Sequence record: PV435126.1
Length of the DNA stretch: 64,000 bases
Source: Escherichia phage EPFV3-03/2025
Strand: one strand, 5' to 3'
Shown here: one piece after another, positions 37,778 to 46,199 of the stretch
How the letters are laid out: every line of letters begins with the position of its first letter
Numbering within the stretch: the stretch's first letter is position 1
Translations under genes and position numbers: made by a program
Notes under the pieces: model-generated
Told to the model about the DNA's origin: nothing
The model's input: only the letters and a program-made list of their open reading frames with translations
The model's database searches: none

Positions 37778-38491
37778 TTAAATATATTCTGTTACATCCT
37801 TGAAGCTCGAAGGCTTCATAATCTTACCTTTACTGTCGAGGAATATGATAACTTTATTTCCGTTGTAGAATTCTTCTTTAGCAACAAAACCTTCATAGCG
37901 ACCATCAAAGCGTCGCTCAAGATCTTTAATCTCCAACTCGATGAGTTGTTCAGCAGGCATATCTGCACTGGCACCGTGTGAATACCGCAGATGGTTGACG
38001 CGTGCAAACTTGCTGTCATTAGATTTTAGAACCTTCCGCATCATCCCGCACACATCACCGCGAAGCTGGAACAGCAAAGCTGTTGACAACTCTGCTAAGC
38101 GGTAAGCAGACGCTCTTTGCTTAGAGGTATTTTTCGCAGCGATCAGTGTATCATAAAATTCACCGATCTTAAACTTAAGACCTCGCGGATTATCAAACAG
38201 GTTTGACCACTTTTCATGGTTATCGTTAACAAGATAAGCGGCATAACTTGTGACAACGTGAAGATCGCAGGCCTCTTTTAGGAGATGATCCCCACCATCA
38301 CCTTTCTCCAACTCTTCCAAAACTTCATTGAACTCTTCCTCAATGAAACTCAGCTGAAGTTCGAATGGTGTGTATGATTTTTTCACTTTAGCTGCTACAC
38401 GGTTCCAATTTTCCACCCAGTTGGCAGACCAAAGGTAGTTTTCAGGCTGAGACAGTTTTTCCAGGTTGTCGATCAGTTTAGTATTCAGCAT
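37778..38491 (-). CDS. MazG-like nucleotide pyrophosphohydrolase domain protein
   Basis: 237 aa; EEEFNEVLEELEKGD...HLLKEACDLHVV resembles the MazG helical core; C-terminal domain unknown. Confidence 0.5.
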   Translation of the reverse strand: MLNTKLIDNLEKLSQPENYLWSANWVENWNRVAAKVKKSYTPFELQLSFIEEEFNEVLEELEKGDGGDHLLKEACDLHVVTSYAAYLVNDNHEKWSNLFDNPRGLKFKIGEFYDTLIAAKNTSKQRASAYRLAELSTALLFQLRGDVCGMMRKVLKSNDSKFARVNHLRYSHGASADMPAEQLIELEIKDLERRFDGRYEGFVAKEEFYNGNKVIIFLDSKGKIMKPSSFKDVTEYI

Positions 38492-38505
38492 TAAAAGGCC
38501 TCCGC

Positions 38506-39267
38506 TTACAGTTCCATAAAGTTTTCTACGATGTCAATAAATGTTTTATCAGAGAAAGCGTCAACCGCCCCGTTAAACCAAACTGGGATGCCGCGATCCT
38601 CATACTGGTAAATGTCACTACGTGAAATGCCATTCTCCCCTAAATGCTGTGAGTCGTATTTGTTAACGATCAGTAGTTTAGTCCCCTTATTACAGGCAGG
38701 GAATAGCTCCCAGTTAAAATTGATAACTGTGTTGGAGCACCCTACAAGGATAACCATATCATTGCTCGTCAGAGAAGTCAACAGGTCATACATGTCTACA
38801 TACTTTGGAGCTACTTCTCCGAAGAACACTACATTAGGCTTGACCCAAGTATACTCGCTTGCATCTACCTCAGAGTATCCAATGTCTTTAATTACGTCAT
38901 TCCCTTCATCATCCTCATAAACTATTTCTGGCAAATACCCGTGGACATGCAAAATATCTTCATGTTTTACACCAGCACGCTCCAGCAAATCATCTACATT
39001 GGTGGTCAGGTTGATCACACGACCAGACCAGCGGGAATACCACTCAGCGATCCGGAGATGTGCAAGGTTAGGCTCAACACTCCCCAAAGCTACACGCCGT
39101 GCATTGTAAAAGTCATGTACCTTATAGTAGTTCTTGGCAAAGGTGTGGATGTTACACACCTCATCGATGCTGAAATTCTCCCACATTGCAGTGCCACCAG
39201 ATCGGAAAGTTGGGATACCAGATTCAGCGCTCAAACCAGCACCGGAGATAATGATCAGTCGTCGCAT
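38506..39267 (-). CDS. Sir2-family (sirtuin-like) NAD-dependent protein
   Basis: 253 aa; GAGLSAESGIPTFRS, NLTTNVDDLLERAG..HVHG and KPNVVFFGE match the three Sir2 signature regions; no CxxC zinc module seen. Confidence 0.75.
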   Translation of the reverse strand: MRRLIIISGAGLSAESGIPTFRSGGTAMWENFSIDEVCNIHTFAKNYYKVHDFYNARRVALGSVEPNLAHLRIAEWYSRWSGRVINLTTNVDDLLERAGVKHEDILHVHGYLPEIVYEDDEGNDVIKDIGYSEVDASEYTWVKPNVVFFGEVAPKYVDMYDLLTSLTSNDMVILVGCSNTVINFNWELFPACNKGTKLLIVNKYDSQHLGENGISRSDIYQYEDRGIPVWFNGAVDAFSDKTFIDIVENFMEL

Positions 39268-39275
39268 AAGTGTCC

Positions 39276-39626
39276 TCAGTAGATGTTTTGTTTAATCTCT
39301 ATTCCAAACTTTTTAAACGAGTCAGCAGCAAGCATGAATTTACGAGCCGCTGATGGGTTAGAAGTATGCACGAAAATCTTCACGTTGTCAACTACAGGAG
39401 GCTTACCAAATACAAATTTTTCTTCCAGCATAGATAGGCAATCGTACCCTTCAAATACCTCTCCAAGGTCGTTGTCCATGTGCCACTCAGAAACGCGCCT
39501 GTAGAGCTTTCCCTTATCGTTAATAAAATCAATAAACTCAGAGGAATTCTTTAGCCAAAGAGCATCTGGGAGCCCATAATTTGACGGATCTCTCAAGTCA
39601 TCCAGCCACACAATCAACTTCTTCAT
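39276..39626 (-). CDS. hypothetical protein, possible receiver-like RNA-repair accessory domain
   Basis: 116 aa; N-terminal KLIVWLDDLRDP strand-loop; translationally coupled to the RNA ligase gene. Confidence 0.4.
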   Translation of the reverse strand: MKKLIVWLDDLRDPSNYGLPDALWLKNSSEFIDFINDKGKLYRRVSEWHMDNDLGEVFEGYDCLSMLEEKFVFGKPPVVDNVKIFVHTSNPSAARKFMLAADSFKKFGIEIKQNIY

Positions 39627-40558
39627 TGCATATAGTCCTCGTTGTGGAAATAGCAGTCAAGTATCTCACGGCGTTCCTGCTCCAGGAGGCAATTCCACAC
39701 ATCTTCTGTGTAGTTTCTACGAATGAAGTTTACCATGCCGTAAAACTCTTCGTCAACACGTTTAAAGATATCATCATCCCAAATCTTCCAAGCTCTACCC
39801 CTCATTACGACCTTCCGTGCCAGATAGTAGGGAGACTTGATCTTTAGTTGCAGGTCATAAGGGTAGTAAGACTTACGGATCATATACCCTTCGCCCCTTG
39901 TTTCTGCAGCCAACTCTTTTGCATAGCTGAACGGAATTTCACGCACAGTGTGAGGACGTTTTGCACCAAGGTATTTGGCAATACCGTCTAAAGCTGCTTC
40001 TGGTAGCATTATTCCAGAATCATTGTATCGGCAACCGATCAAATAGGCACCATGATCTTCCTGAACAATATGCGGGTCTGAAGGGTGACAAATTTCAAAC
40101 ATGAATGTCATGTTTTCATGGCCCATAACCTTCTTGATAAGATCTAAATTACCACATTGCTCCTGGATTGTTTCCTTTGCGAGGTTACAATATGGAGAAT
40201 CAAGAGACCCTGTTGTTGAGAACAACAGTTCACCTTTGTGAGATGATACCACACCAAGGAATCCGTTCTTTTTCTCTACCGCCGTCACAAGTTTATTGTC
40301 AGGCAGGTTGGTGGAATTTTCTCCCAAGTTAAATACTTTTGTGAAGGGCCATGCCACAACATTTCCTTCATTACCGACAACAATTCCTCGGCACTCTAGT
40401 AAACGCGGAGACAAATGCCATAGATTGTTGTAAAATACTTTTCTGGCATATTTATAGATCTTTAACCCAAGATCTGGATAATACCGACTGGTTACAAGAC
40501 CTTTATCCACTAAATCATCTGCATTAAAATACTTCATCATACATTCCTCGTTTGTCAT
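39623..40558 (-). CDS. RNA ligase-like nucleotidyltransferase
   Basis: 311 aa; candidate motif I KKNG, motif IV EGYMIRK, motif V LKIK; separate from the DNA ligase; next to the Pnkp-like genes. Confidence 0.6.
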   Translation of the reverse strand: MTNEECMMKYFNADDLVDKGLVTSRYYPDLGLKIYKYARKVFYNNLWHLSPRLLECRGIVVGNEGNVVAWPFTKVFNLGENSTNLPDNKLVTAVEKKNGFLGVVSSHKGELLFSTTGSLDSPYCNLAKETIQEQCGNLDLIKKVMGHENMTFMFEICHPSDPHIVQEDHGAYLIGCRYNDSGIMLPEAALDGIAKYLGAKRPHTVREIPFSYAKELAAETRGEGYMIRKSYYPYDLQLKIKSPYYLARKVVMRGRAWKIWDDDIFKRVDEEFYGMVNFIRRNYTEDVWNCLLEQERREILDCYFHNEDYMQ

Positions 40559-40601
40559 TTTGTCACTCTATCTTGCCACACAAATAAACTAGTGTCAACA
40601 C

Positions 40602-40630
40602 TTGAAATGAACAAAAGAGTTATGTATACT
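40602..40630 (+). promoter_or_regulatory. sigma70-like promoter
   Basis: TTGAAA-N17-TGTATACT upstream of the first plus-strand gene. Confidence 0.5.
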
Positions 40631-40658
40631 ACCATTAAAATTAAAACGGAGGATTACT

Positions 40659-41069
40659 ATGTCTAAAATGCTGTATATCGTGCGTGGTCTACCAGGTTCT
40701 GGCAAATCAACACTGGCAAATGCACTATCTTTAGAGGGGCTGTACCCACATTTTGAGAACGACATGTTCTGGTACGACGACGATGGAAATTACAACTGGG
40801 ATGCAAGTAAAGTAACACTTGCAGCAAAATGGTGCAAAGATAACGTAGAAGATATGATGCGTATGGGATACGACCGTGTCGTGGTAAGTAATACGTTTAC
40901 AAAAGAAAAACATGTGCAAGAATATGTTGACATGGCAATCAGTCATGGGTATAGTTATACTGTGATCGTGGTTGAAAACCGCCACGGTAATAAGAGCATT
41001 CATGATGTTCCAGATAGGGTTGTGGACCGTATGGAGCGTGAGCTTAAAAACTGCATTAAACTAAAATGA
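40659..41069 (+). CDS. polynucleotide 5'-kinase (Pnkp kinase-domain-like)
   Basis: 136 aa; P-loop GLPGSGKST and VSNT resemble the T4 Pnkp kinase domain. Confidence 0.7.
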   Translation: MSKMLYIVRGLPGSGKSTLANALSLEGLYPHFENDMFWYDDDGNYNWDASKVTLAAKWCKDNVEDMMRMGYDRVVVSNTFTKEKHVQEYVDMAISHGYSYTVIVVENRHGNKSIHDVPDRVVDRMERELKNCIKLK

Positions 41070-41076
41070 GGGATGT

Positions 41077-41631
41077 ATGAAATATTTTGTAACAAGCGAT
41101 ACACACTTTCTCCACCAGCGAGTCATGGAGTTTGATTCATGTCAAAAACACAGATCTCAGTATGATCACAATCTTGACAGTATGAACGAAGGAATCATTG
41201 CAGAGTGGAACTCTGTTGTATCACCAGAAGACACTGTGTTTCACTTGGGCGATATTGCATGCACTAAGGATAAGAATATCAACAACTTATTTCCAGATAT
41301 TCTAAATATGTTGAACGGACATATTATTCTTGTTCGTGGTAACCATGACACAAGGACGACTGTCAGAATTATGAAAGAGTTCGGTCATGAGGTTGTAGAT
41401 TATTACGAGCTTCGCCACAACAAGAATTTGATCTGTATGAGCCATTACCAGTTTGCAAAGTGGAACAGAAAGCCTCACGGATCAGTCCAACTGTTCGGTC
41501 ATGCTCACGGAACCACACAGCAGTTGTTTGGCAGGCAGTTTGATGTCGGTTGGGATGTGTGGGGGAGACTCTTACCATTAGAAGAGGCATACCGTATTGC
41601 AATGAGTCTTGCTATTGACAGCGGGGAGTAA
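41077..41631 (+). CDS. calcineurin-like metallophosphoesterase (candidate 2',3' end-healing phosphatase)
   Basis: 184 aa; SDTHF, GDI, GNHD, GHAH motifs. Confidence 0.8.
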   Translation: MKYFVTSDTHFLHQRVMEFDSCQKHRSQYDHNLDSMNEGIIAEWNSVVSPEDTVFHLGDIACTKDKNINNLFPDILNMLNGHIILVRGNHDTRTTVRIMKEFGHEVVDYYELRHNKNLICMSHYQFAKWNRKPHGSVQLFGHAHGTTQQLFGRQFDVGWDVWGRLLPLEEAYRIAMSLAIDSGE

Positions 41632-41678
41632 TCCCTGCTATTTTAAAGAAAATTGCCACACAAGGAGAATCAGGAGAT

Positions 41679-42029
41679 ATGAAAGAGGAGGATAAGCTGC
41701 CATACCTTAAAGTCCCATTTGGAATACTGTCTATGTCAAAAGTTTTGAATGATACAACTGGAGAGGTTGTTGTTCTTGACTTGTATGACAAGATCGTATA
41801 CTGCTACCTGCACAACTGGTATAAGCTTGGAGGAAATTCACGCTTCACACCCAGCACAAGGAAAATTGCAGCAGATGTTGGGATAAAGAAAACAAAAGCA
41901 GCAGCGTGCGTTAAAACTTTAGAATGTGCAGGCGTGGTTGAAATATCCACACAAGGGAGAGGTAAAAGATGCACATTTTCCAAAGTTTTGCCACCAGAAG
42001 AGGTTATTCGAATGTCAACAACTGGTTAG
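41679..42029 (+). CDS. winged-helix DNA-binding protein, candidate initiator or repressor
   Basis: 116 aa; STRKIAADVGIKKTKAAACVKTLECAGVV helix-turn-helix-like segment; followed by an iteron array. Confidence 0.5.
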   Translation: MKEEDKLPYLKVPFGILSMSKVLNDTTGEVVVLDLYDKIVYCYLHNWYKLGGNSRFTPSTRKIAADVGIKKTKAAACVKTLECAGVVEISTQGRGKRCTFSKVLPPEEVIRMSTTG

Positions 42030-42090
42030 ACCAGTAAAAACTTAAATATCTGTACTATAAGGATTCGTATGTTTTATGTCCATCCAAGAG

Positions 42091-42176
42091 CAGAGGGTAG
42101 TAACTGTCCGTAATACGGACACTACTGCCCGTCACGCGGACACATCTGCCCGTAATACGGACACTAACTGTCCGCA
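42091..42176. repeat. four tandem 21-22 bp repeats each containing the dyad GyCCG-N5-CGGAC
   Basis: taactgtccgtaatacggacac / tactgcccgtcacgcggacac / atctgcccgtaatacggacac / taactgtccgcaatacggacac, directly abutting. Confidence 0.85.
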
Positions 42177-42690
42177 ATACGGACACATAAAGAATATAAC
42201 TAAAATAACTAAATAATAAAAAATAAAAGATCTAGTACTTATGGTACTAAAGTACATATACTTAACTTATGTAGAATATACTAGATCCTAAGTACCATGT
42301 TTTAAATTTATTACTTACTATTGGTAGTGTCGGCCCTTCATTGGCACTCGCCTACGAGGGGCGAGATGCCGGGCCTCCATAGTGCACACAATAACAGGAG
42401 TGCATACATGCAGGACTGTTAACATGTGTGGGAGCGAAGCGATAGCGCAGGCCAAAGGCCGAGCACTAATGTGGACCACCGACGAAAGCTTGCCAGCGCC
42501 GTAAGGAGTCGGTTGAGAGCCTCCCGCGAGAGTTTAGTTAAAGTTTATGTGTGGAAACGGACAGGAAGGCCCCTAAATCGCCACACAGCTGCGTAAACTA
42601 TACCAAGTAAGGCAATCGCACCAGTTTGATAGAAAAGCTCGTTACAAAGCGATACAGTGAGTTTTTCTATAACTTGAAGAGGAGGCAGTT

Positions 42691-43269
42691 ATGAGTTCAC
42701 GCAAAGATGACCGCGAAAAGATTGCAAAACGTTATCAGAATGAAGAACAGATGGAGAAAACTTTCAAGTGGAAGCCAGGTTTCCAGCGTAATCATTCTAA
42801 CGCTCGTGATCGTAAGCATCCGGATAAGTGGCTAACACCGCCAAATGATGGCATGCAGGTTGGTGATGAGAAGGAGCTATCGCCTGGAAAAGATGGCAAC
42901 TACATTCGCACTAAGGACGCTGGTCCAAAGGATGACAGCTATCTTGTAGATAAGGTTCTTGATGGTATTGATGTAGATGTTGACACCACACGGAACTTTT
43001 TTCTTGGGTGGTATCGCACAGGTTTTTTCGACATCAAGGCCATTCGTCGTGTTTGTGATATTAAAAAGTCTGCATATGATGACGACTCGTTACATCGCAC
43101 CCTGAGGCAATATTCAGAAAGATATGGTCATCCGGTTATCACTCTTGACGATGTTGACGAAGTGATGTATCATGCAGAGGTTGTTGCAGGCAGATTTGGT
43201 GATGCATATCTTGATATCCTTTCTGCAAACGATGAGGTAATGTTGAATAAGATTTACTACGAACGTTGA
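42691..43269 (+). CDS. hypothetical protein
   Basis: 192-aa ORF with ggagg RBS. Confidence 0.5.
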   Translation: MSSRKDDREKIAKRYQNEEQMEKTFKWKPGFQRNHSNARDRKHPDKWLTPPNDGMQVGDEKELSPGKDGNYIRTKDAGPKDDSYLVDKVLDGIDVDVDTTRNFFLGWYRTGFFDIKAIRRVCDIKKSAYDDDSLHRTLRQYSERYGHPVITLDDVDEVMYHAEVVAGRFGDAYLDILSANDEVMLNKIYYER

Positions 43270-43279
43270 GGAGAGCTTA

Positions 43280-43468
43280 ATGAACAATCCGGTAGCAAAG
43301 AACTGTAATAAGTTCAACAAGTCTGCAATTCACACTGACAGGAAAAAGAGCTGGTCACCGGACATTGACGAGGAGCTTGAGAATTACTTTGAAGATCTGG
43401 TTACCAATGCAGGTGAGGTTGCGATTAAAGAATACGCAGACAGGAGGGATAAGGCCGGAATCTGTTGA
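43280..43468 (+). CDS. hypothetical protein
   Basis: 62-aa ORF. Confidence 0.4.
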   Translation: MNNPVAKNCNKFNKSAIHTDRKKSWSPDIDEELENYFEDLVTNAGEVAIKEYADRRDKAGIC

Positions 43469-43493
43469 CAAAAATAATGTTACCTGATAAGAT
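43465..43493 (+). promoter_or_regulatory. sigma70-like promoter
   Basis: TTGACA-N17-TAAGAT. Confidence 0.5.
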
Positions 43494-43544
43494 CTGCAAT
43501 ATGATGTGATACAATTTTAACTTACGAGGTCTACAGGTAATGCT

Positions 43545-43787
43545 ATGTTTAAGGTTAAGCTCGTTTTCCGTTCCATGAATGAGGATTATTTAGAAGATGA
43601 AGGTGAATTTCGTGCACTAGATGATGCAATAGATTTTGCCAACGACTTAGCTTGTATGAACACGGGTTATGGGTTGTGTTGTTGGGACGGTGGTATTCAG
43701 ATCGGTGATAGCAAAATCTTCTACTTCTACCCTGAGCCGGATAACAAACAAATTAAGTATGTTTTATTTATTTGTGCTTTACAATGA
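43545..43787 (+). CDS. hypothetical acidic protein
   Basis: 80-aa ORF. Confidence 0.45.
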   Translation: MFKVKLVFRSMNEDYLEDEGEFRALDDAIDFANDLACMNTGYGLCCWDGGIQIGDSKIFYFYPEPDNKQIKYVLFICALQ

Positions 43788-44074
43788 GGTTGTTTTCGTG
43801 TATCATGATGAATATCCAATTTAAAGATGAATTTGATGGCTTTATCTCCGGATGCTTTGAAACAGGGTTCGGAGAATGCTGAGTTCCCCTTAGAGGGCTT
43901 GATAGTGCACCACACTTAAAATGGTAGGGGCAGCCAGCACATGACGATGTGACCCCAGCCAACCTGTAATAAGGTCGAGCCAAAGCGCGGTAATGGGTCT
44001 CTGGTAACCCACTTGTTGGGTCTTGTGGTCCAGGACGCTGGGCAAGTCGCAGGGAATACCACCCTGCGGCGAAC

Positions 44075-44103
44075 TTGACAATCAGTATTTGCCGTGATAA
44101 AAT
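44075..44103 (+). promoter_or_regulatory. sigma70-like promoter
   Basis: TTGACA-N17-TAAAAT upstream of the gene at 44132. Confidence 0.5.
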
Positions 44104-44131
44104 CCACCTATCACGTGATAATGGAGGAAAC

Positions 44132-44470
44132 ATGGCGGATACAACTAAAAAGCGTCGCCGTAGAGGCAGACCTCTGAAAGAGGAGTCCAACGCCATTCAG
44201 CTAGAGAAGAACATTCTTGATATGAAGGAATCTTTTATAGCGATGGTTCCAGAAGCTCACAAAGTTTTAAGAGAGCTGATGTTGGATCCGAAAACCAAGC
44301 AAAATATTCGTCAAAGCATTGCAGAGTATGTCCTTGATAAGGCAGACCGAATGCAGGAAGAATATGATGAGATGTTTGGTGAAGAGGAAGAGGTAGTAGT
44401 AGAAGAGGCTGAAAAACCAGCACCTTTTATGCCATTTACCACAGAGATACAGCCTGTTGGCAATAGTTAA
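44132..44470 (+). CDS. hypothetical DNA-binding-like protein (basic KKRRRRGRP N-terminus, acidic C-terminus)
   Basis: ORF 44075..44470 trimmed to MADTTKKRRRRGRP, which has a ggagg RBS. Confidence 0.5.
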   Translation: MADTTKKRRRRGRPLKEESNAIQLEKNILDMKESFIAMVPEAHKVLRELMLDPKTKQNIRQSIAEYVLDKADRMQEEYDEMFGEEEEVVVEEAEKPAPFMPFTTEIQPVGNS

Positions 44471-44479
44471 AATATTTTC

Positions 44480-44508
44480 TTGACAAACTTTGCTTAACAG
44501 TGTAATAT
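44480..44508 (+). promoter_or_regulatory. sigma70-like promoter for the tRNA cluster
   Basis: TTGACA-N17-TAATAT about 60 bp upstream of the first tRNA. Confidence 0.55.
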
Positions 44509-44566
44509 TGTAAACATGGTCTCCCACCTTTTCTGGCGGCTCAGGTGTAAAAGAAAGCCACCCAGT

Positions 44567-44641
44567 GCCCTGTTAGCTTAGTGGATAAAGCAGCGGCCTT
44601 CTAAGCCGTTGACACTGGTTCGAGTCCAGTACGGGGTGCCA
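44567..44641 (+). tRNA. tRNA-Arg (anticodon UCU)
   Basis: Cloverleaf by eye: acceptor gccctgt/acggggt, anticodon loop cttctaa, T-loop ttcgagt, encoded CCA. Confidence 0.75.
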
Positions 44642-44645
44642 AATT

Positions 44646-44732
44646 GGGGAGTTATCCCGTAGAGGTAGCGGTGTAGACTGTAAATCTATTGTCATTGCGA
44701 CTCGGGTGGTTCGACTCCACCACTCCCCACCA
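44646..44732 (+). tRNA. tRNA-Tyr (anticodon GUA)
   Basis: Acceptor ggggagt/actcccc, anticodon loop ctgtaaa, long variable arm, T-loop ttcgact, CCA. Confidence 0.75.
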
Positions 44733-44856
44733 AATTTATATTTTTAAATGCATAAATCATACAGATAATGACATTGATATTTATCGTCGTTTATACTAGT
44801 CACTAACTGCTCGAAAATCAGTGTCATTATCAGTGTAATTTATAAAGGAGGGTAGG

Positions 44857-44947
44857 GAGCAATGGTGCTCAAGCGGTCTTGAAAACCGTCCCGTTGAGGA
44901 TGACTCGATGATGGTTCGATTCCATTACTCTCCGCCACATTGTTGAC
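44857..44947 (+). tRNA. tRNA-Ser (anticodon UGA)
   Basis: Acceptor ggagggt/actctcc, anticodon stem-loop gcggt-cttgaaa-accgt, long variable arm, T-loop ttcgatt, CCA; exact 5' end uncertain. Confidence 0.6.
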
Positions 44948-45035
44948 CTTGTAATTAAGCGAAAGCCGGAAGCAGAACCGGATTATCAAATGTTACAGTC
45001 GTCATCGCCGACTAGCCACATGGTCAACATATTGC

Positions 45036-45134
45036 GCTAGGTAAGCCCTTTGGCAAGGGCGAGGATTTTTAATCCTGAAAATAGACGAGGTAGTCGTTGA
45101 ATACATAGGTGGTTCGATTCCATCACCTAGCACC
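45036..45134 (+). tRNA. atypical oversized tRNA-like element (about 99 nt; anticodon uncertain, loop candidate tttttaa)
   Basis: Perfect 7-bp acceptor pairing gctaggt/acctagc, D-arm gccc-tttggcaa-gggc, T-arm ggtgg-ttcgatt-ccatc, but about 30 nt between anticodon arm and T-arm. Confidence 0.4.
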
Positions 45135-45139
45135 TTTTT

Positions 45140-45215
45140 GCTGATGTAGCACAATTGGCAGTGCAATTGATTTGTAATCAATAGGTTGCAGGTTCGAGTC
45201 CTGCCATCAGCACCA
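45140..45215 (+). tRNA. tRNA-Thr (anticodon UGU)
   Basis: Acceptor gctgatg/catcagc, anticodon stem-loop attga-tttgtaa-tcaat, T-loop ttcgagt, CCA. Confidence 0.75.
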
Positions 45216-45216
45216 T

Positions 45217-45291
45217 GGCCCTGTAGCTGGAAGGTTCAAGCAAGCGACTCATAATCGCCAGACGGTGGTTCAATTCCACCCAGGGCCACCA
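45217..45291 (+). tRNA. tRNA-Met or Ile2 (anticodon CAU)
   Basis: Acceptor ggccctg/cagggcc, anticodon loop ctcataa, T-loop ttcaatt, CCA. Confidence 0.7.
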
Positions 45292-45303
45292 AATAATAAA
45301 TAC

Positions 45304-45379
45304 TCCGCGTAGCTCAGCTTGGTAGAGCGCCTGATTTGGGATCAGGAGGTCGAGTGTTCGAATCACTCCGTGGAGACCA
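45304..45379 (+). tRNA. tRNA-Pro (anticodon UGG)
   Basis: Acceptor ctccgcg/cgtggag with C1-G72, anticodon stem-loop cctga-tttggga-tcagg, T-loop ttcgaat, CCA. Confidence 0.7.
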
Positions 45380-45425
45380 CCTTTAGTTATACTTTAAATA
45401 TATACACACAAAAGGAACCTTTAAA

Positions 45426-45695
45426 ATGTATACACTTAAAATTGTAGAGCGTGTAAATCCAACCCATACTGTAGATTTTCGTGACGATTTCAACCCTCTT
45501 GCTGTAAATCTTCGAGAGTCGTATCATGAACTAAGCTGCGATGCAGTTGTGGTCTTCTTTGAAGACAACTCTGAAGGGGCAGTGGCTTGTGTTGTTGATA
45601 GCGAGCAGAAGTTTTATATTTACAGAGATGTGGATGCTTACTTGATGAATGAGAATGCGGTTACTGTCAGAATCATCCACCGAGTGCCTCGATAA
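45426..45695 (+). CDS. hypothetical protein
   Basis: 89-aa ORF after the tRNA cluster. Confidence 0.45.
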   Translation: MYTLKIVERVNPTHTVDFRDDFNPLAVNLRESYHELSCDAVVVFFEDNSEGAVACVVDSEQKFYIYRDVDAYLMNENAVTVRIIHRVPR

Positions 45696-45751
45696 GTATT
45701 AGTCTCCTTTTAGTTAGTTTCGATCTATTTAGGTTACTCAATTTTAACCCG

Positions 45752-45783
45752 CCCCGTTAGCTGTATAGCTGCGGGGTTTTTTC
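45752..45783 (+). terminator. rho-independent terminator
   Basis: GC-rich hairpin ccccg..cgggg followed by TTTTTT. Confidence 0.6.
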
Positions 45784-45800
45784 GTTTCTGGAGCCTTAAA

Positions 45801-46199
45801 ATGATTTCAGTTTTAACATTGATGAGTAAATACAGAGGGATCATAAAAGGTTTAGTTTTTGCAGCTGCTCTAGGCACAGCATACTTGGGGGCCGTGTATT
45901 GGTTTAACTCTAAGCTCAACGCTGCTTATCAGGAAGGCGTAACAGCAACAGAGTTAAAGTGGGAACGGATCCTTGACCAGCAACAAAAGCAGGCCGACAA
46001 AATTAAAATGGGCCACGCAGAGGAGGTTAAAAACCTTGAAAAATCTCTTTCTGACCTACAGGATAAATTAAATATGGCTGAGAAGGCAGGTAAAGAAAAG
46101 CAGATTATCTACCTCCAATCACCTGAAGGTAAGAAGTCAACACTCCCTGACCAGCTTATAGATATCTATAATGAGAGCATTAATCAGGAGGGCAGATGA
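45801..46199 (+). CDS. i-spanin (Rz-like)
   Basis: 132 aa; N-terminal TM LVFAAALGTAYLGAVYWF followed by coiled-coil-like region; stop overlaps the o-spanin start. Confidence 0.6.
   Translation: MISVLTLMSKYRGIIKGLVFAAALGTAYLGAVYWFNSKLNAAYQEGVTATELKWERILDQQQKQADKIKMGHAEEVKNLEKSLSDLQDKLNMAEKAGKEKQIIYLQSPEGKKSTLPDQLIDIYNESINQEGR

Follow-up and report, generated by a model that had tools for sequence, protein, structure and literature searches.

The window analysed here, a 64,000-nt stretch of Escherichia phage EPFV3-03/2025 (record PV435126.1), carries an RNA ligase-like gene back-to-back with genes for a P-loop kinase and a calcineurin-like phosphoesterase. An earlier note, made from the sequence alone, had read these genes as a split RNA repair module directed against host anticodon nucleases. 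Are the three activities indeed encoded, do the genes belong together, and which broken ends would their products act on? Numerous anti-phage defences shut translation down by cutting tRNA, among them PrrC, RloC, Cas13a, Retron-Eco7, PARIS, OLD and DARNA. RNA repair by phage enzymes counts among the few direct antidotes known against such defences, and the present cluster would offer a tractable E. coli phage version of it, assembled from parts unlike those of T4, including putative cREC and zinc-less sirtuin enzymes.

Genes and putative promoters of the cluster

The window is Vequintavirus (rV5-like) DNA; it shares 98.6% identity with phage SYGMH1 and 94-99% with Vequintavirus genomes. The four open reading frames proposed earlier are all present at the positions given for them, with intact catalytic motifs (Table 1). 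They are separate genes on two strands, ligase on the minus and kinase and phosphoesterase on the plus strand, instead of one fused polypeptide. The extent of the module had been drawn too short: the sirtuin gene and the MazG-like gene, further downstream on the minus strand, were missed. The resulting six-gene neighbourhood (sirtuin, ligase, cREC, kinase, MazG and phosphoesterase) spans positions 37778-41631.

Table 1. Features of the neighbourhood (positions in the window)
Feature	Position	Strand	Length or content
MazG-like nucleotide pyrophosphohydrolase	37778-38491	-	237 aa
Class III-like sirtuin	38506-39267	-	253 aa
cREC-type small protein	39276-39626	-	116 aa
Rnl1-type ATP-dependent RNA ligase	39623-40558	-	311 aa
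Strand-switch intergenic region	40559-40658		putative back-to-back sigma-70-like promoters
Stand-alone PNK-clade P-loop kinase	40659-41069	+	136 aa
Calcineurin-like binuclear metallophosphoesterase	41077-41631	+	184 aa

Gene packing is operon-like, neighbours overlapping or sitting 7-14 nt apart. The start of cREC overlaps the ligase stop codon by 4 nt (ATGA) and the sirtuin gene lies 8 nt downstream of cREC. No terminator was predicted in a scan of 38400-42800. The cluster heads a leftward DNA-metabolism block that includes an exonuclease, ribonucleotide reductases and, 2.5 kb off, a DNA ligase. On the other side, the tRNA cluster begins at 44567, 2.9 kb past the end of the phosphoesterase gene (the earlier estimate was about 3 kb), and includes one aberrant tRNA-like gene; a scan of 39000-46000 with Rfam returned tRNAs and no other non-coding RNA.

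A divergent promoter between ligase and kinase, as claimed in the earlier note, is plausible, as judged by two putative sigma-70-like sites placed back-to-back. On the plus strand, a consensus scan found TTGAAA (40602-40607) and TATACT (40625-40630) separated by a 17-nt spacer, with 10/12 matches, at a position also predicted by PhagePromoter in the GenBank record Gotham. On the minus strand, TTGACA (40598-40593), a 17-nt spacer and TGg-CAAGAT (40575-40570) were read off the sequence. The promoter core GTCAACACTTGA is invariant among five rV5-like phages, and the GC skew flips sign at 40559-40658.

Families and catalytic residues of the encoded proteins

The earlier note had left the class of the ligase to HMM comparison. 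Pfam and PHROG searches identify an Rnl1-type enzyme (PF09511, RNA_lig_T4_1, 3.7e-15; phrog_562, 9.5e-66). Searches of the PDB with the single ligase or kinase sequence gave nothing useful and homologue profiles were required; the ligase profile matched T4 Rnl1 structures 2C5U and 9DO4 at E 6.5e-13. Motif I reads K96-K-N98-G99, is invariant in 30 homologues and aligns with the KEDG of T4 Rnl1. K96 is the predicted lysine nucleophile, and the absence of such a lysine, raised earlier as a possible objection, is not observed. Residues R57, K74/F76, E155, E223-G224 and K239/K241, aligned to T4 Rnl1, are likewise invariant in the 30 homologues, so that the protein carries nucleotidyltransferase motifs III, IV and V as well as the Rnl1-specific N-terminal residues (T4 R54, K75 and F77). 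In T4 Rnl1 these three and the motif residues are reportedly essential according to mutational analysis.

An AF2 model of the ligase (pLDDT 90) was compared with known structures by Foldseek. The best matches were Trl1-LIG, Rnl3 and T4 Rnl1, all with E around 1e-12 and with the fungal Trl1-LIG ranking first. DNA ligases came far behind (ASFV DNA ligase E ~2e-6, others >1e-3). On Pfam, profile and fold results together, a DNA ligase paralog was thus ruled out. A bona fide DNA ligase is encoded by another gene of the phage. The protein is nevertheless not a T4 RnlA equivalog (TIGR02308 39.1 bits, cut-off 242): its alignment to T4 Rnl1 stops at motif V, and the ~65 residues beyond, compared to ~120 in T4, form a short helical C-terminal domain in place of the T4 tRNA-specificity domain. 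Translation probably begins at 40540 or 40537 rather than at 40558, as suggested by a GAGGA Shine-Dalgarno sequence upstream, the low pLDDT of residues 1-7 and the shorter form annotated in Gotham.

The kinase carries the P-loop RGLPGSGKST, with Walker A lysine K16 and general-base D35. G10, G15, K16 and D35 are invariant across 34 homologues and D35 aligns with D35 of T4. Family searches returned AAA_33 (5.3e-11), phrog_2071 (4e-58) and phrog_505, annotated as polynucleotide kinase (4e-10). The earlier note had considered that the kinase might be specific for dNMPs. Instead, its nearest solved relatives by profile are polynucleotide kinases, namely Pnkp1 4XRP (8e-8), T4 Pnk (3.5e-7), CthPnk (2e-6, full length) and mammalian PNKP (3e-5), and adenylate and shikimate kinases matched weakly (2e-3 or worse). 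The multidomain adenylate kinase 9 reached 4.3e-8 over the P-loop only, with no stretch over threshold. Closest kinship to dNMP/NMP kinases was therefore ruled out by the profile search. The protein is a single domain with no fused HAD (DxDxT) 3'-phosphatase. The acceptor-binding arginine of T4 Pnk is R38; here position 38 is a Trp that is not conserved in the family, and no equivalent of this arginine is present.

The identification of the third protein as a calcineurin-like phosphoesterase was borne out by a complete set of binuclear-metal motifs: SD8xH10, GD59, GN89H90D, H123 and GH142xH144. Among 32 homologues H10, D59, N89, H90, H123, H142 and H144 are conserved and D8 is nearly invariant. 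It matches PF00149 (Metallophos; 6e-6, 27.2 bits for a cut-off of 21.5) and phrog_547 (3e-52). Among solved structures just one is closely related, that of Aquifex aq_1665 (1XM7, E 6e-24), a protein with no assigned function. By sequence comparison it is placed in the aq_1665 clade and not in the clade of CthPnkp and lambda phosphatase, kinship with either of which was rejected as the profile gave no detectable match. A match to the DNA-ligase-associated PdeM was weak (E 3e-4) and below cut-off. Two metallophosphoesterases, CthPnkp and lambda phosphatase, have been shown to possess both 2',3'-cyclic phosphodiesterase and monoesterase activity (PMC2190708), a precedent for what enzymes of this kind can do.

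The small protein following the ligase was correctly described in the earlier note as coupled to it. It is however not an unknown protein, since it belongs to cREC (PF20274, 2.3e-14, 54.2 bits for a cut-off of 27). Invariant residues mapped on 54 stand-alone homologues outline a conserved pocket (D9, D10, R12, D51, D53, H87, T88, S89, N90 and K96). The AF2 model (pLDDT 92) resembles receiver domains best (Foldseek TM ~0.6), and no solved or characterised cREC member was found in this search. The name stands for cyclic-phosphate processing receiver-like, a predicted activity, and the family is described as confined to RNA-repair or ADP-ribose contexts (PMC9503650). The sirtuin (PF02146, 8e-27; phrog_2162, 8e-109) retains the NAD-binding GAGxSxxSGIPxFR and the catalytic HG. 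Its zinc-ribbon segment is shortened and cysteine-free, and in the alignment with SIRT5 and CobB structures (E 1e-21) the zinc module is jumped over. The MazG-like protein matches phrog_671 (5e-22) and no Pfam family.

Linkage across ligase lineages and relation to known systems

We surveyed the 3-kb neighbourhood of the ligase in 41 independent lineages from other phages and viral contigs, clustered at 70% identity. Within this distance a kinase is encoded in 34 lineages, a phosphoesterase likewise in 34 and the two together in 29; the grouping is thus not due to chance. The usual arrangement is phosphoesterase-ligase-kinase on one strand, adjacent or overlapping, and two lineages carry kinase-ligase fusions. 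Only in the rV5-like lineage are kinase and phosphoesterase on a different strand from the ligase, so the split is a rearrangement local to that lineage. By contrast, cREC occurs near the ligase in 3/41 lineages, the sirtuin in 4/41 and MazG in 2/41, and the trio therefore appears sufficient without cREC and sirtuin. Ligase, kinase and phosphoesterase form a widespread conserved core, cREC, sirtuin and MazG being lineage-restricted accessories and the MazG-like gene a peripheral neighbour. NAD+ salvage genes (NAMPT, PRPP synthetase) adjoin the ligase module in 10-12 of the 41 lineages; none was found in the window. Other recurrent ligase neighbours, DUF7390, DUF6011 and an unannotated 159-aa family, do not occur in the window either.

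The same set of genes has been described, from comparative genomics, by Iyer, Burroughs, Anantharaman and Aravind (2022, Viruses 14:1977, PMC9503650) as a type 2, sirtuin-centred phage RNA-repair neighbourhood, with Escherichia phage V5 and Proteus phage Mydo as prototypes. For the V5-type neighbourhood, which includes sirtuin and MazG, a role in RNA repair was predicted, and calcineurin-like phosphoesterases were reported to be present 'occasionally' in sirtuin neighbourhoods (PMC9503650); in our survey they were found at 13/13 sirtuin-containing loci examined. The cluster of the window is an instance of this prototype: T4-like ligase, cREC, kinase, sirtuin, MazG and phosphoesterase are shared within the Vequintavirus lineage and nothing essential differs. 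GenBank records already annotate its genes and the neighbourhood has been published, so that the cluster itself adds little. The modest new points are the ligase-kinase-metallophosphoesterase core, the status of sirtuin and cREC as rare add-ons, the split layout as an rV5 rearrangement and the frequent vicinity of NAD-salvage genes.

Like T4 Pnkp and Rnl1, the enzymes are phage-encoded, separate proteins, with an Rnl1-type ligase of matching catalytic residues and a PNK-type kinase (P-loop, general-base Asp). In T4, however, the kinase carries a fused HAD (DxDxT) domain that heals 3' ends in place of a binuclear metallophosphoesterase, and Rnl1 has the C-terminal tRNA-specificity domain lacking here; the rV5-like cluster contains cREC and sirtuin genes in addition. 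With the bacterial Pnkp/Hen1 systems (Clostridium thermocellum Pnkp, Pnkp1-Rnl-Hen1) it shares a P-loop kinase, matching Pnkp1 and CthPnk by profile, a calcineurin-type phosphoesterase and an ATP-dependent ligase. Those systems differ in that the activities reside in one polypeptide with an Rnl4-type ligase, compared to three genes on two strands with an Rnl1-type ligase, and their phosphatase domain (CthPnkp) is not detectably matched by the aq_1665-clade enzyme. Neither Hen1 nor any other methyltransferase was found in the neighbourhood by Pfam, PHROG or annotated context. The fungal and plant Trl1-Tpt1 pathway has a similar ligase fold, a P-loop kinase partner and an NAD-using enzyme, as found nearby here, but relies on a 2'-PO4-dependent ligase together with a 2H cyclic phosphodiesterase and Tpt1/KptA, for which latter two cREC and sirtuin are the hypothesised stand-ins.

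Proposed function and alternatives

We favour, with a probability of roughly 0.6, the interpretation that the cluster is a heal-and-seal RNA repair pathway of Vequintavirus which undoes tRNA cleavage by anticodon-nuclease-type defences; repair of cleaved tRNA against host anticodon nucleases is the most likely function that we infer. The in-silico checks called for in the earlier note all came out on the side of its reading. The sequences show that the genes are there, belong to these families, keep their catalytic residues and stay linked across lineages, and the operon-like packing and conserved putative promoters agree with the proposal; substrates, sequence of events and counter-defence role are inferred. 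In the proposed order of steps, the genes would be expressed early from the two back-to-back promoters. The kinase would phosphorylate the 5'-OH of a severed RNA, the likeliest substrate being a tRNA cut in its anticodon loop by a host ribonuclease, and the phosphoesterase would remove a 2',3'-cyclic or 3'-phosphate to leave a 3'-OH; cREC may help by opening the cyclic phosphate. The ligase, adenylylated at K96, would then join the 3'-OH to the 5'-PO4 end. Cuts made by anticodon nucleases would thereby be reversed. T4 Pnkp and Rnl1 undo the cleavage of tRNA by PrrC in this way. The presence of cREC and sirtuin in the rV5 lineage hints that 3'-end chemistry may differ from that of T4. The clade of the phosphoesterase and its weak resemblance to PdeM, the missing T4 R38 equivalent in the kinase, and the missing T4 C-terminal domain and low T4 RnlA equivalog score of the ligase count against the favoured interpretation. 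Literature searches found no biochemical or genetic tests of these proteins, and the text of the HIDEN-SEQ preprint, a genome-wide transposon study of essentiality in Vequintavirus Bas54, is silent on these genes.

An NAD-dependent, Trl1/Tpt1-like route, proposed by Iyer et al. (PMC9503650), is unlikely in our estimate but has several points in its favour. Here the cyclic phosphate would be opened by cREC or the phosphoesterase so as to leave a 2'-phosphate, and the resulting 3'-OH,2'-PO4 end would be sealed by the ligase. The zinc-less sirtuin would then, like KptA/Tpt1, use NAD+ to release the junction 2'-phosphate in the form of ADP-ribose cyclic phosphate, clearance of the by-products falling to the phosphoesterase or MazG. 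If true, this would provide a sirtuin acting on RNA as a functional analogue of Tpt1/KptA. The route has been put in print for phage V5 (PMC9503650), and is consistent with the ligase, cREC, sirtuin and MazG genes sharing a strand at overlaps or spacings of 8-14 nt, with a sirtuin that kept its NAD-binding and catalytic His motifs while losing the zinc module, with NAMPT and PRPP synthetase adjoining the module in other lineages and with fungal Trl1-LIG as the top Foldseek match. However, the Foldseek E-values of Trl1, Rnl3 and T4 Rnl1 are indistinguishable and sequence profiles match T4 Rnl1 alone. Sirtuin and cREC are rare among the 41 lineages whereas phosphoesterase and kinase are near-constant, which indicates that the ligase family as a whole needs no dedicated 2'-phosphate remover. 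The neighbouring genes and 43 kb of annotated context contain neither a detected 2H nor a detected KptA gene, and we know of no sirtuin acting on an RNA 2'-phosphate. Somewhat less likely still are the specific assignments in which cREC, as a phospho-aspartate-type enzyme of receiver fold, opens the 2',3'-cyclic phosphate and the zinc-less sirtuin removes the 2'-phosphate by ADP-ribosyl transfer.

In a further reading, the three enzymes would not serve counter-defence but act on DNA ends or on RNAs that the phage itself makes, for example in replication, recombination or the maturation of phage tRNA or mRNA. The cluster heads a DNA-metabolism block with its DNA ligase nearby, in 14/41 lineages the RNA ligase has an ATP-dependent DNA ligase no more than 3 kb away, the phosphoesterase weakly resembles PdeM, T4 Pnk is also active on DNA, and the tRNA cluster with its aberrant tRNA-like gene is close. 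Nevertheless, the ligase is Rnl1-type with a DNA ligase separately encoded, across lineages the phosphoesterase is tightly linked to the RNA ligase and not to the DNA ligase, and cREC is limited to RNA-repair or ADP-ribose contexts (PMC9503650); we rate this reading as quite improbable. Finally, a main role of the ligase in tail-fibre attachment, by analogy with T4 gp63, is hardly credible: many GenBank records read 'RNA ligase 1 and tail attachment protein' and PHROG names follow T4 gp63, but the name has been passed on by homology only, the ligase reaches 39 of the 242 bits for a T4 RnlA equivalog and is without the T4 C-terminal domain, and it sits among nucleic-acid enzymes, far from the tail genes, with kinase and phosphoesterase linked to it in most lineages.

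Gene content of the locus

An ORF check of the window recovered all four open reading frames that the earlier note had assigned to a split RNA-repair module, at the positions and on the strands listed below. Over the 3.1 kb around the module, 119 phage records share 94-99% identity with the window; almost all come from rV5-like Escherichia phages (genus Vequintavirus), the nearest being SYGMH1 (98.6%) and FV3 (97.9%). In the GenBank record of phage HMD-6, the small ORF and the ligase are labelled 'cyclic-phosphate processing receiver domain-containing protein' and 'RNA ligase', and the kinase and phosphoesterase '3'-phosphatase 5'-polynucleotide kinase' and 'phosphoesterase'. The module is thus already known, being both annotated in GenBank and published for the same phage lineage. 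Since its neighbourhood was described for phage V5 by Iyer et al. (PMC9503650), it represents an instance of a published, purely computational system. Literature searches found no experimental study of the module proteins.

Features of the putative RNA-repair locus (window coordinates)
Feature	Position	Strand	Remarks
MazG-like pyrophosphohydrolase	37778-38491	-	phrog_671; downstream of sirtuin
Sirtuin	38506-39267	-	PF02146 at 8e-27; directly downstream of cREC
cREC-type small ORF	39276-39626	-	116 aa
Ligase ORF	39623-40558	-	311 aa; overlap with small ORF, ATGA
Putative promoter	100-bp intergenic region	-	TTGACA-17-(TGg)CAAGAT, read directly from sequence
Putative promoter	100-bp intergenic region	+	TTGAAA-17-TATACT, 10/12 consensus matches
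Kinase ORF	40659-41069	+	136 aa; carries RGLPGSGKST
Phosphoesterase ORF	41077-41631	+	184 aa

Predicted activities of the encoded proteins

The ligase matches Pfam RNA_lig_T4_1 (3.7e-15) and phrog_562 (9.5e-66) and has 1688 homologues in a large protein database, mostly of ~300 aa and on phage-sized contigs. Residues invariant in an alignment of 30 homologues include R57, K74, F76, K96-x-N98-G99, E155, E223-G224, K239 and K241. T4 Rnl1 was the sole match in a PDB search with the ligase profile (2C5U, 9DO4; E 6.5e-13), and the invariant residues align to its motifs LECRG, EKFFN, KEDG, FEF, EGY and KIKS. The AlphaFold model (pLDDT 90) matched fungal Trl1-LIG, archaeal Rnl3 and T4 Rnl1 equally (E ~1e-12), as against E above 1e-3 for most DNA ligases and ~2e-6 for the ASFV DNA ligase, which still falls some six orders of magnitude short of the RNA-ligase matches. 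The earlier note had allowed that the protein might lack a catalytic lysine or be a DNA ligase paralogue. The Rnl1 motifs and the RNA-ligase fold speak against both, since K96 lies in the K-x-N-G motif aligned to T4 KEDG, and the Pfam and T4 Rnl1 profile matches agree with the fold. Orthology to T4 RnlA was rejected (39 bits, equivalog cut-off 242 bits); T4 RnlA carries a tRNA-specificity domain after motif V, whereas the window ligase has a short helical tail of ~65 aa.

Ligase length differs between GenBank records (311 or 305 aa), the Gotham record having the shorter form. At the first ATG of the ORF (40558) the ribosome-binding site is weak, while GAGGA precedes an ATG-ATG pair at 40540/40537 (window 40535-40558). 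Because of this upstream GAGGA, the disorder of residues 1-7 in the model and the shorter form in Gotham, the true start is probably 40540 or 40537.

The kinase matches AAA_33 (5e-11) and the PHROG polynucleotide-kinase family (4e-10), with R9, G10, G15, K16 and D35 invariant in 34 homologues, all from ligase loci. The top full-domain PDB match of its profile was Pnkp1 of the Pnkp1-Rnl-Hen1 complex (8e-8), and T4 polynucleotide kinase (3.5e-7, D35 aligned to T4 D35) and C. thermocellum Pnk (2e-6, full length) were also matched, with tRNA(Sec) kinase and mammalian PNKP next among the best full-domain matches. Adenylate and shikimate kinases scored 2e-3 or worse, except for the multidomain adenylate kinase 9 (4.3e-8), a P-loop-only match in which no stretch passed the threshold. 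Strong PNK matches and weak matches to NMP-type kinases thus point to a PNK-like enzyme rather than to the dNMP kinase considered previously. Unlike T4 Pnkp, it has no equivalent of R38 or of the fused phosphatase domain.

The phosphoesterase matches Metallophos (6e-6, above cut-off) and phrog_547 (3e-52), and its metal ligands H10, D59, N89, H90, H123, H142 and H144 are invariant, and D8 nearly so, in 32 homologues. Its sole close relative of solved structure is aq_1665 of Aquifex, an uncharacterised protein (1XM7, E 6e-24). PDB searches detected neither the C. thermocellum Pnkp phosphatase domain nor lambda phosphatase, so that the description 'Pnkp-like' holds at the superfamily level only.

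The small ORF, coupled to the ligase as proposed but previously taken as unknown, is a cREC domain (PF20274, 54 bits, cut-off 27). We found 54 homologues, all stand-alone and of ~114 aa; R12, D51, D53, H87, S89, N90 and K96 are kept in 29/29 sequences; for D9, D10 and T88 the share is 90% or more. Receiver domains are the closest likeness of the AlphaFold model (pLDDT 92). The domain was named by the Aravind group, and cyclic-phosphate processing is their prediction. In another phage locus, L016, the cREC homologue ~1.9 kb upstream of the ligase has 214 aa, which suggests that it is either fused to a further domain or was called as too long an ORF.

The cREC, sirtuin and MazG genes are separated by gaps of 8 and 14 nt, and a scan of 38400-42800 predicted no terminator in this stretch. 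The sirtuin is similar to class III enzymes (SIRT5, CobB; E 1e-21). Both its NAD-binding motif and the Y-x-x-R of class III are preserved, as is the catalytic HG; its zinc-ribbon segment has no cysteine and is ~25 residues shorter than that of SIRT5.

Conservation of the module and alternative readings

We surveyed 80 viral-contig loci with ligase relatives (36-88% identity) and three assembly loci, covering ±10 kb; profiles built iteratively from the window proteins were run against the ORFs. Clustering of the ligases at 70% identity gave 41 lineages, and a gene was counted if within 3 kb of the ligase. Kinase and phosphoesterase were each present in 34/41 lineages and both in 29/41, compared to 14/41 for DNA ligase, 4/41 for sirtuin, 3/41 for cREC and 2/41 for MazG. 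The commonest order is phosphoesterase-ligase-kinase on a single strand, with genes often overlapping; the rV5-like lineage (the window together with L001 and L005) is the sole one in which kinase and phosphoesterase lie opposite to the ligase strand. Two lineages (L039-L056) encode kinase-ligase fusions of 421-432 aa (e.g. L044 577-1875), near which no phosphoesterase was found. All 13 sirtuin-containing loci have the phosphoesterase. From these counts and the strand survey we conclude that the conserved functional core consists of the heal-and-seal trio, sirtuin and cREC being additions restricted to some lineages. The split between two strands is as the earlier note had it, but as a layout peculiar to the rV5-like lineage it is a local rearrangement and no design principle.

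The best-supported reading is repair of cut tRNA by these three proteins, for which T4 Pnkp and Rnl1 acting against PrrC serve as model. The kinase would phosphorylate the 5'-OH end, the phosphoesterase would make the 3'-OH end, possibly after opening of the cyclic phosphate by cREC, and the Rnl1-type ligase would seal the break, restoring tRNAs cut by host anticodon-nuclease-type defences. Metallophosphoesterases performing both cyclic-phosphodiesterase and monoesterase steps are exemplified by CthPnkp and lambda phosphatase (PMC2190708). Within the reach of sequence analysis, the counter-defence interpretation put forward earlier is supported.

The main rival, put forward in 2022, is a Trl1/Tpt1-like route that depends on NAD, with the sirtuin acting like KptA to remove 2'-phosphates (Iyer et al., PMC9503650). 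It stays alive because ligase, cREC and sirtuin are tightly packed in the window, and because in other phages the module is often linked to NAMPT/NAPRTase (10/41 lineages within 3 kb) and PRPP-synthetase-like genes (12/41; salvage gene examples at L003 1852-4595, L004 8931-12944 and L058 9473-10945). Such NAD+ salvage genes are commoner near the module than sirtuin or cREC; both types are absent from the window. Against this route as the general mechanism stands the fact that sirtuin and cREC are rare in the ligase family. Processing of DNA ends, maturation of the phage's own RNAs, or a 'tail attachment' role as in the GenBank label of the ligase are weakly supported. The remaining interest of the module lies in the enzymology of cREC and sirtuin, both activities being predicted.

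Putative promoters, repeats and tRNA genes

The sign of the GC skew flips near 40 kb. A long leftward series of genes for nucleotide metabolism and replication begins with the ligase, and a rightward one, beginning with the kinase, extends through tRNAs and lysis genes into structural genes. The divergent promoter of the earlier note corresponds to back-to-back putative sites with -35 boxes 3 nt apart, the plus-strand site being also predicted by PhagePromoter in the Gotham record. In five rV5-like phages, one with a ligase only 88% identical, their core GTCAACACTTGA does not vary. It is thus plausible that both module halves are co-expressed early by host RNA polymerase.

Four copies of the palindromic unit TGTCCG-N5-CGGACA, 21-22 bp long and arranged in tandem, occupy 42101-42186, just downstream of an HTH/'replication initiation protein' gene (41679-42029) and next to the point near 40 kb where the cumulative GC skew is lowest; an ORF-free stretch up to 42690 follows. 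The array could be a replication origin or an operator array.

The tRNA cluster said to lie 3 kb away starts 2.9 kb to the right, with seven tRNA or tRNA-like genes predicted by ARAGORN (44567-45379). Among them, tRNA-Ser(tga) at 44847-44937 was not recovered by Rfam at gathering threshold and has no annotation in FV3 or HMD-6. A 99-nt tRNA-like gene at 45036-45134 is unannotated in the FV3 RefSeq record and scores only 35.5 bits with the Rfam tRNA model. Its anticodon loop has 8 nt (called as 'atcc' by ARAGORN), its anticodon stem consists of A:T pairs throughout, and its extra arm is long.
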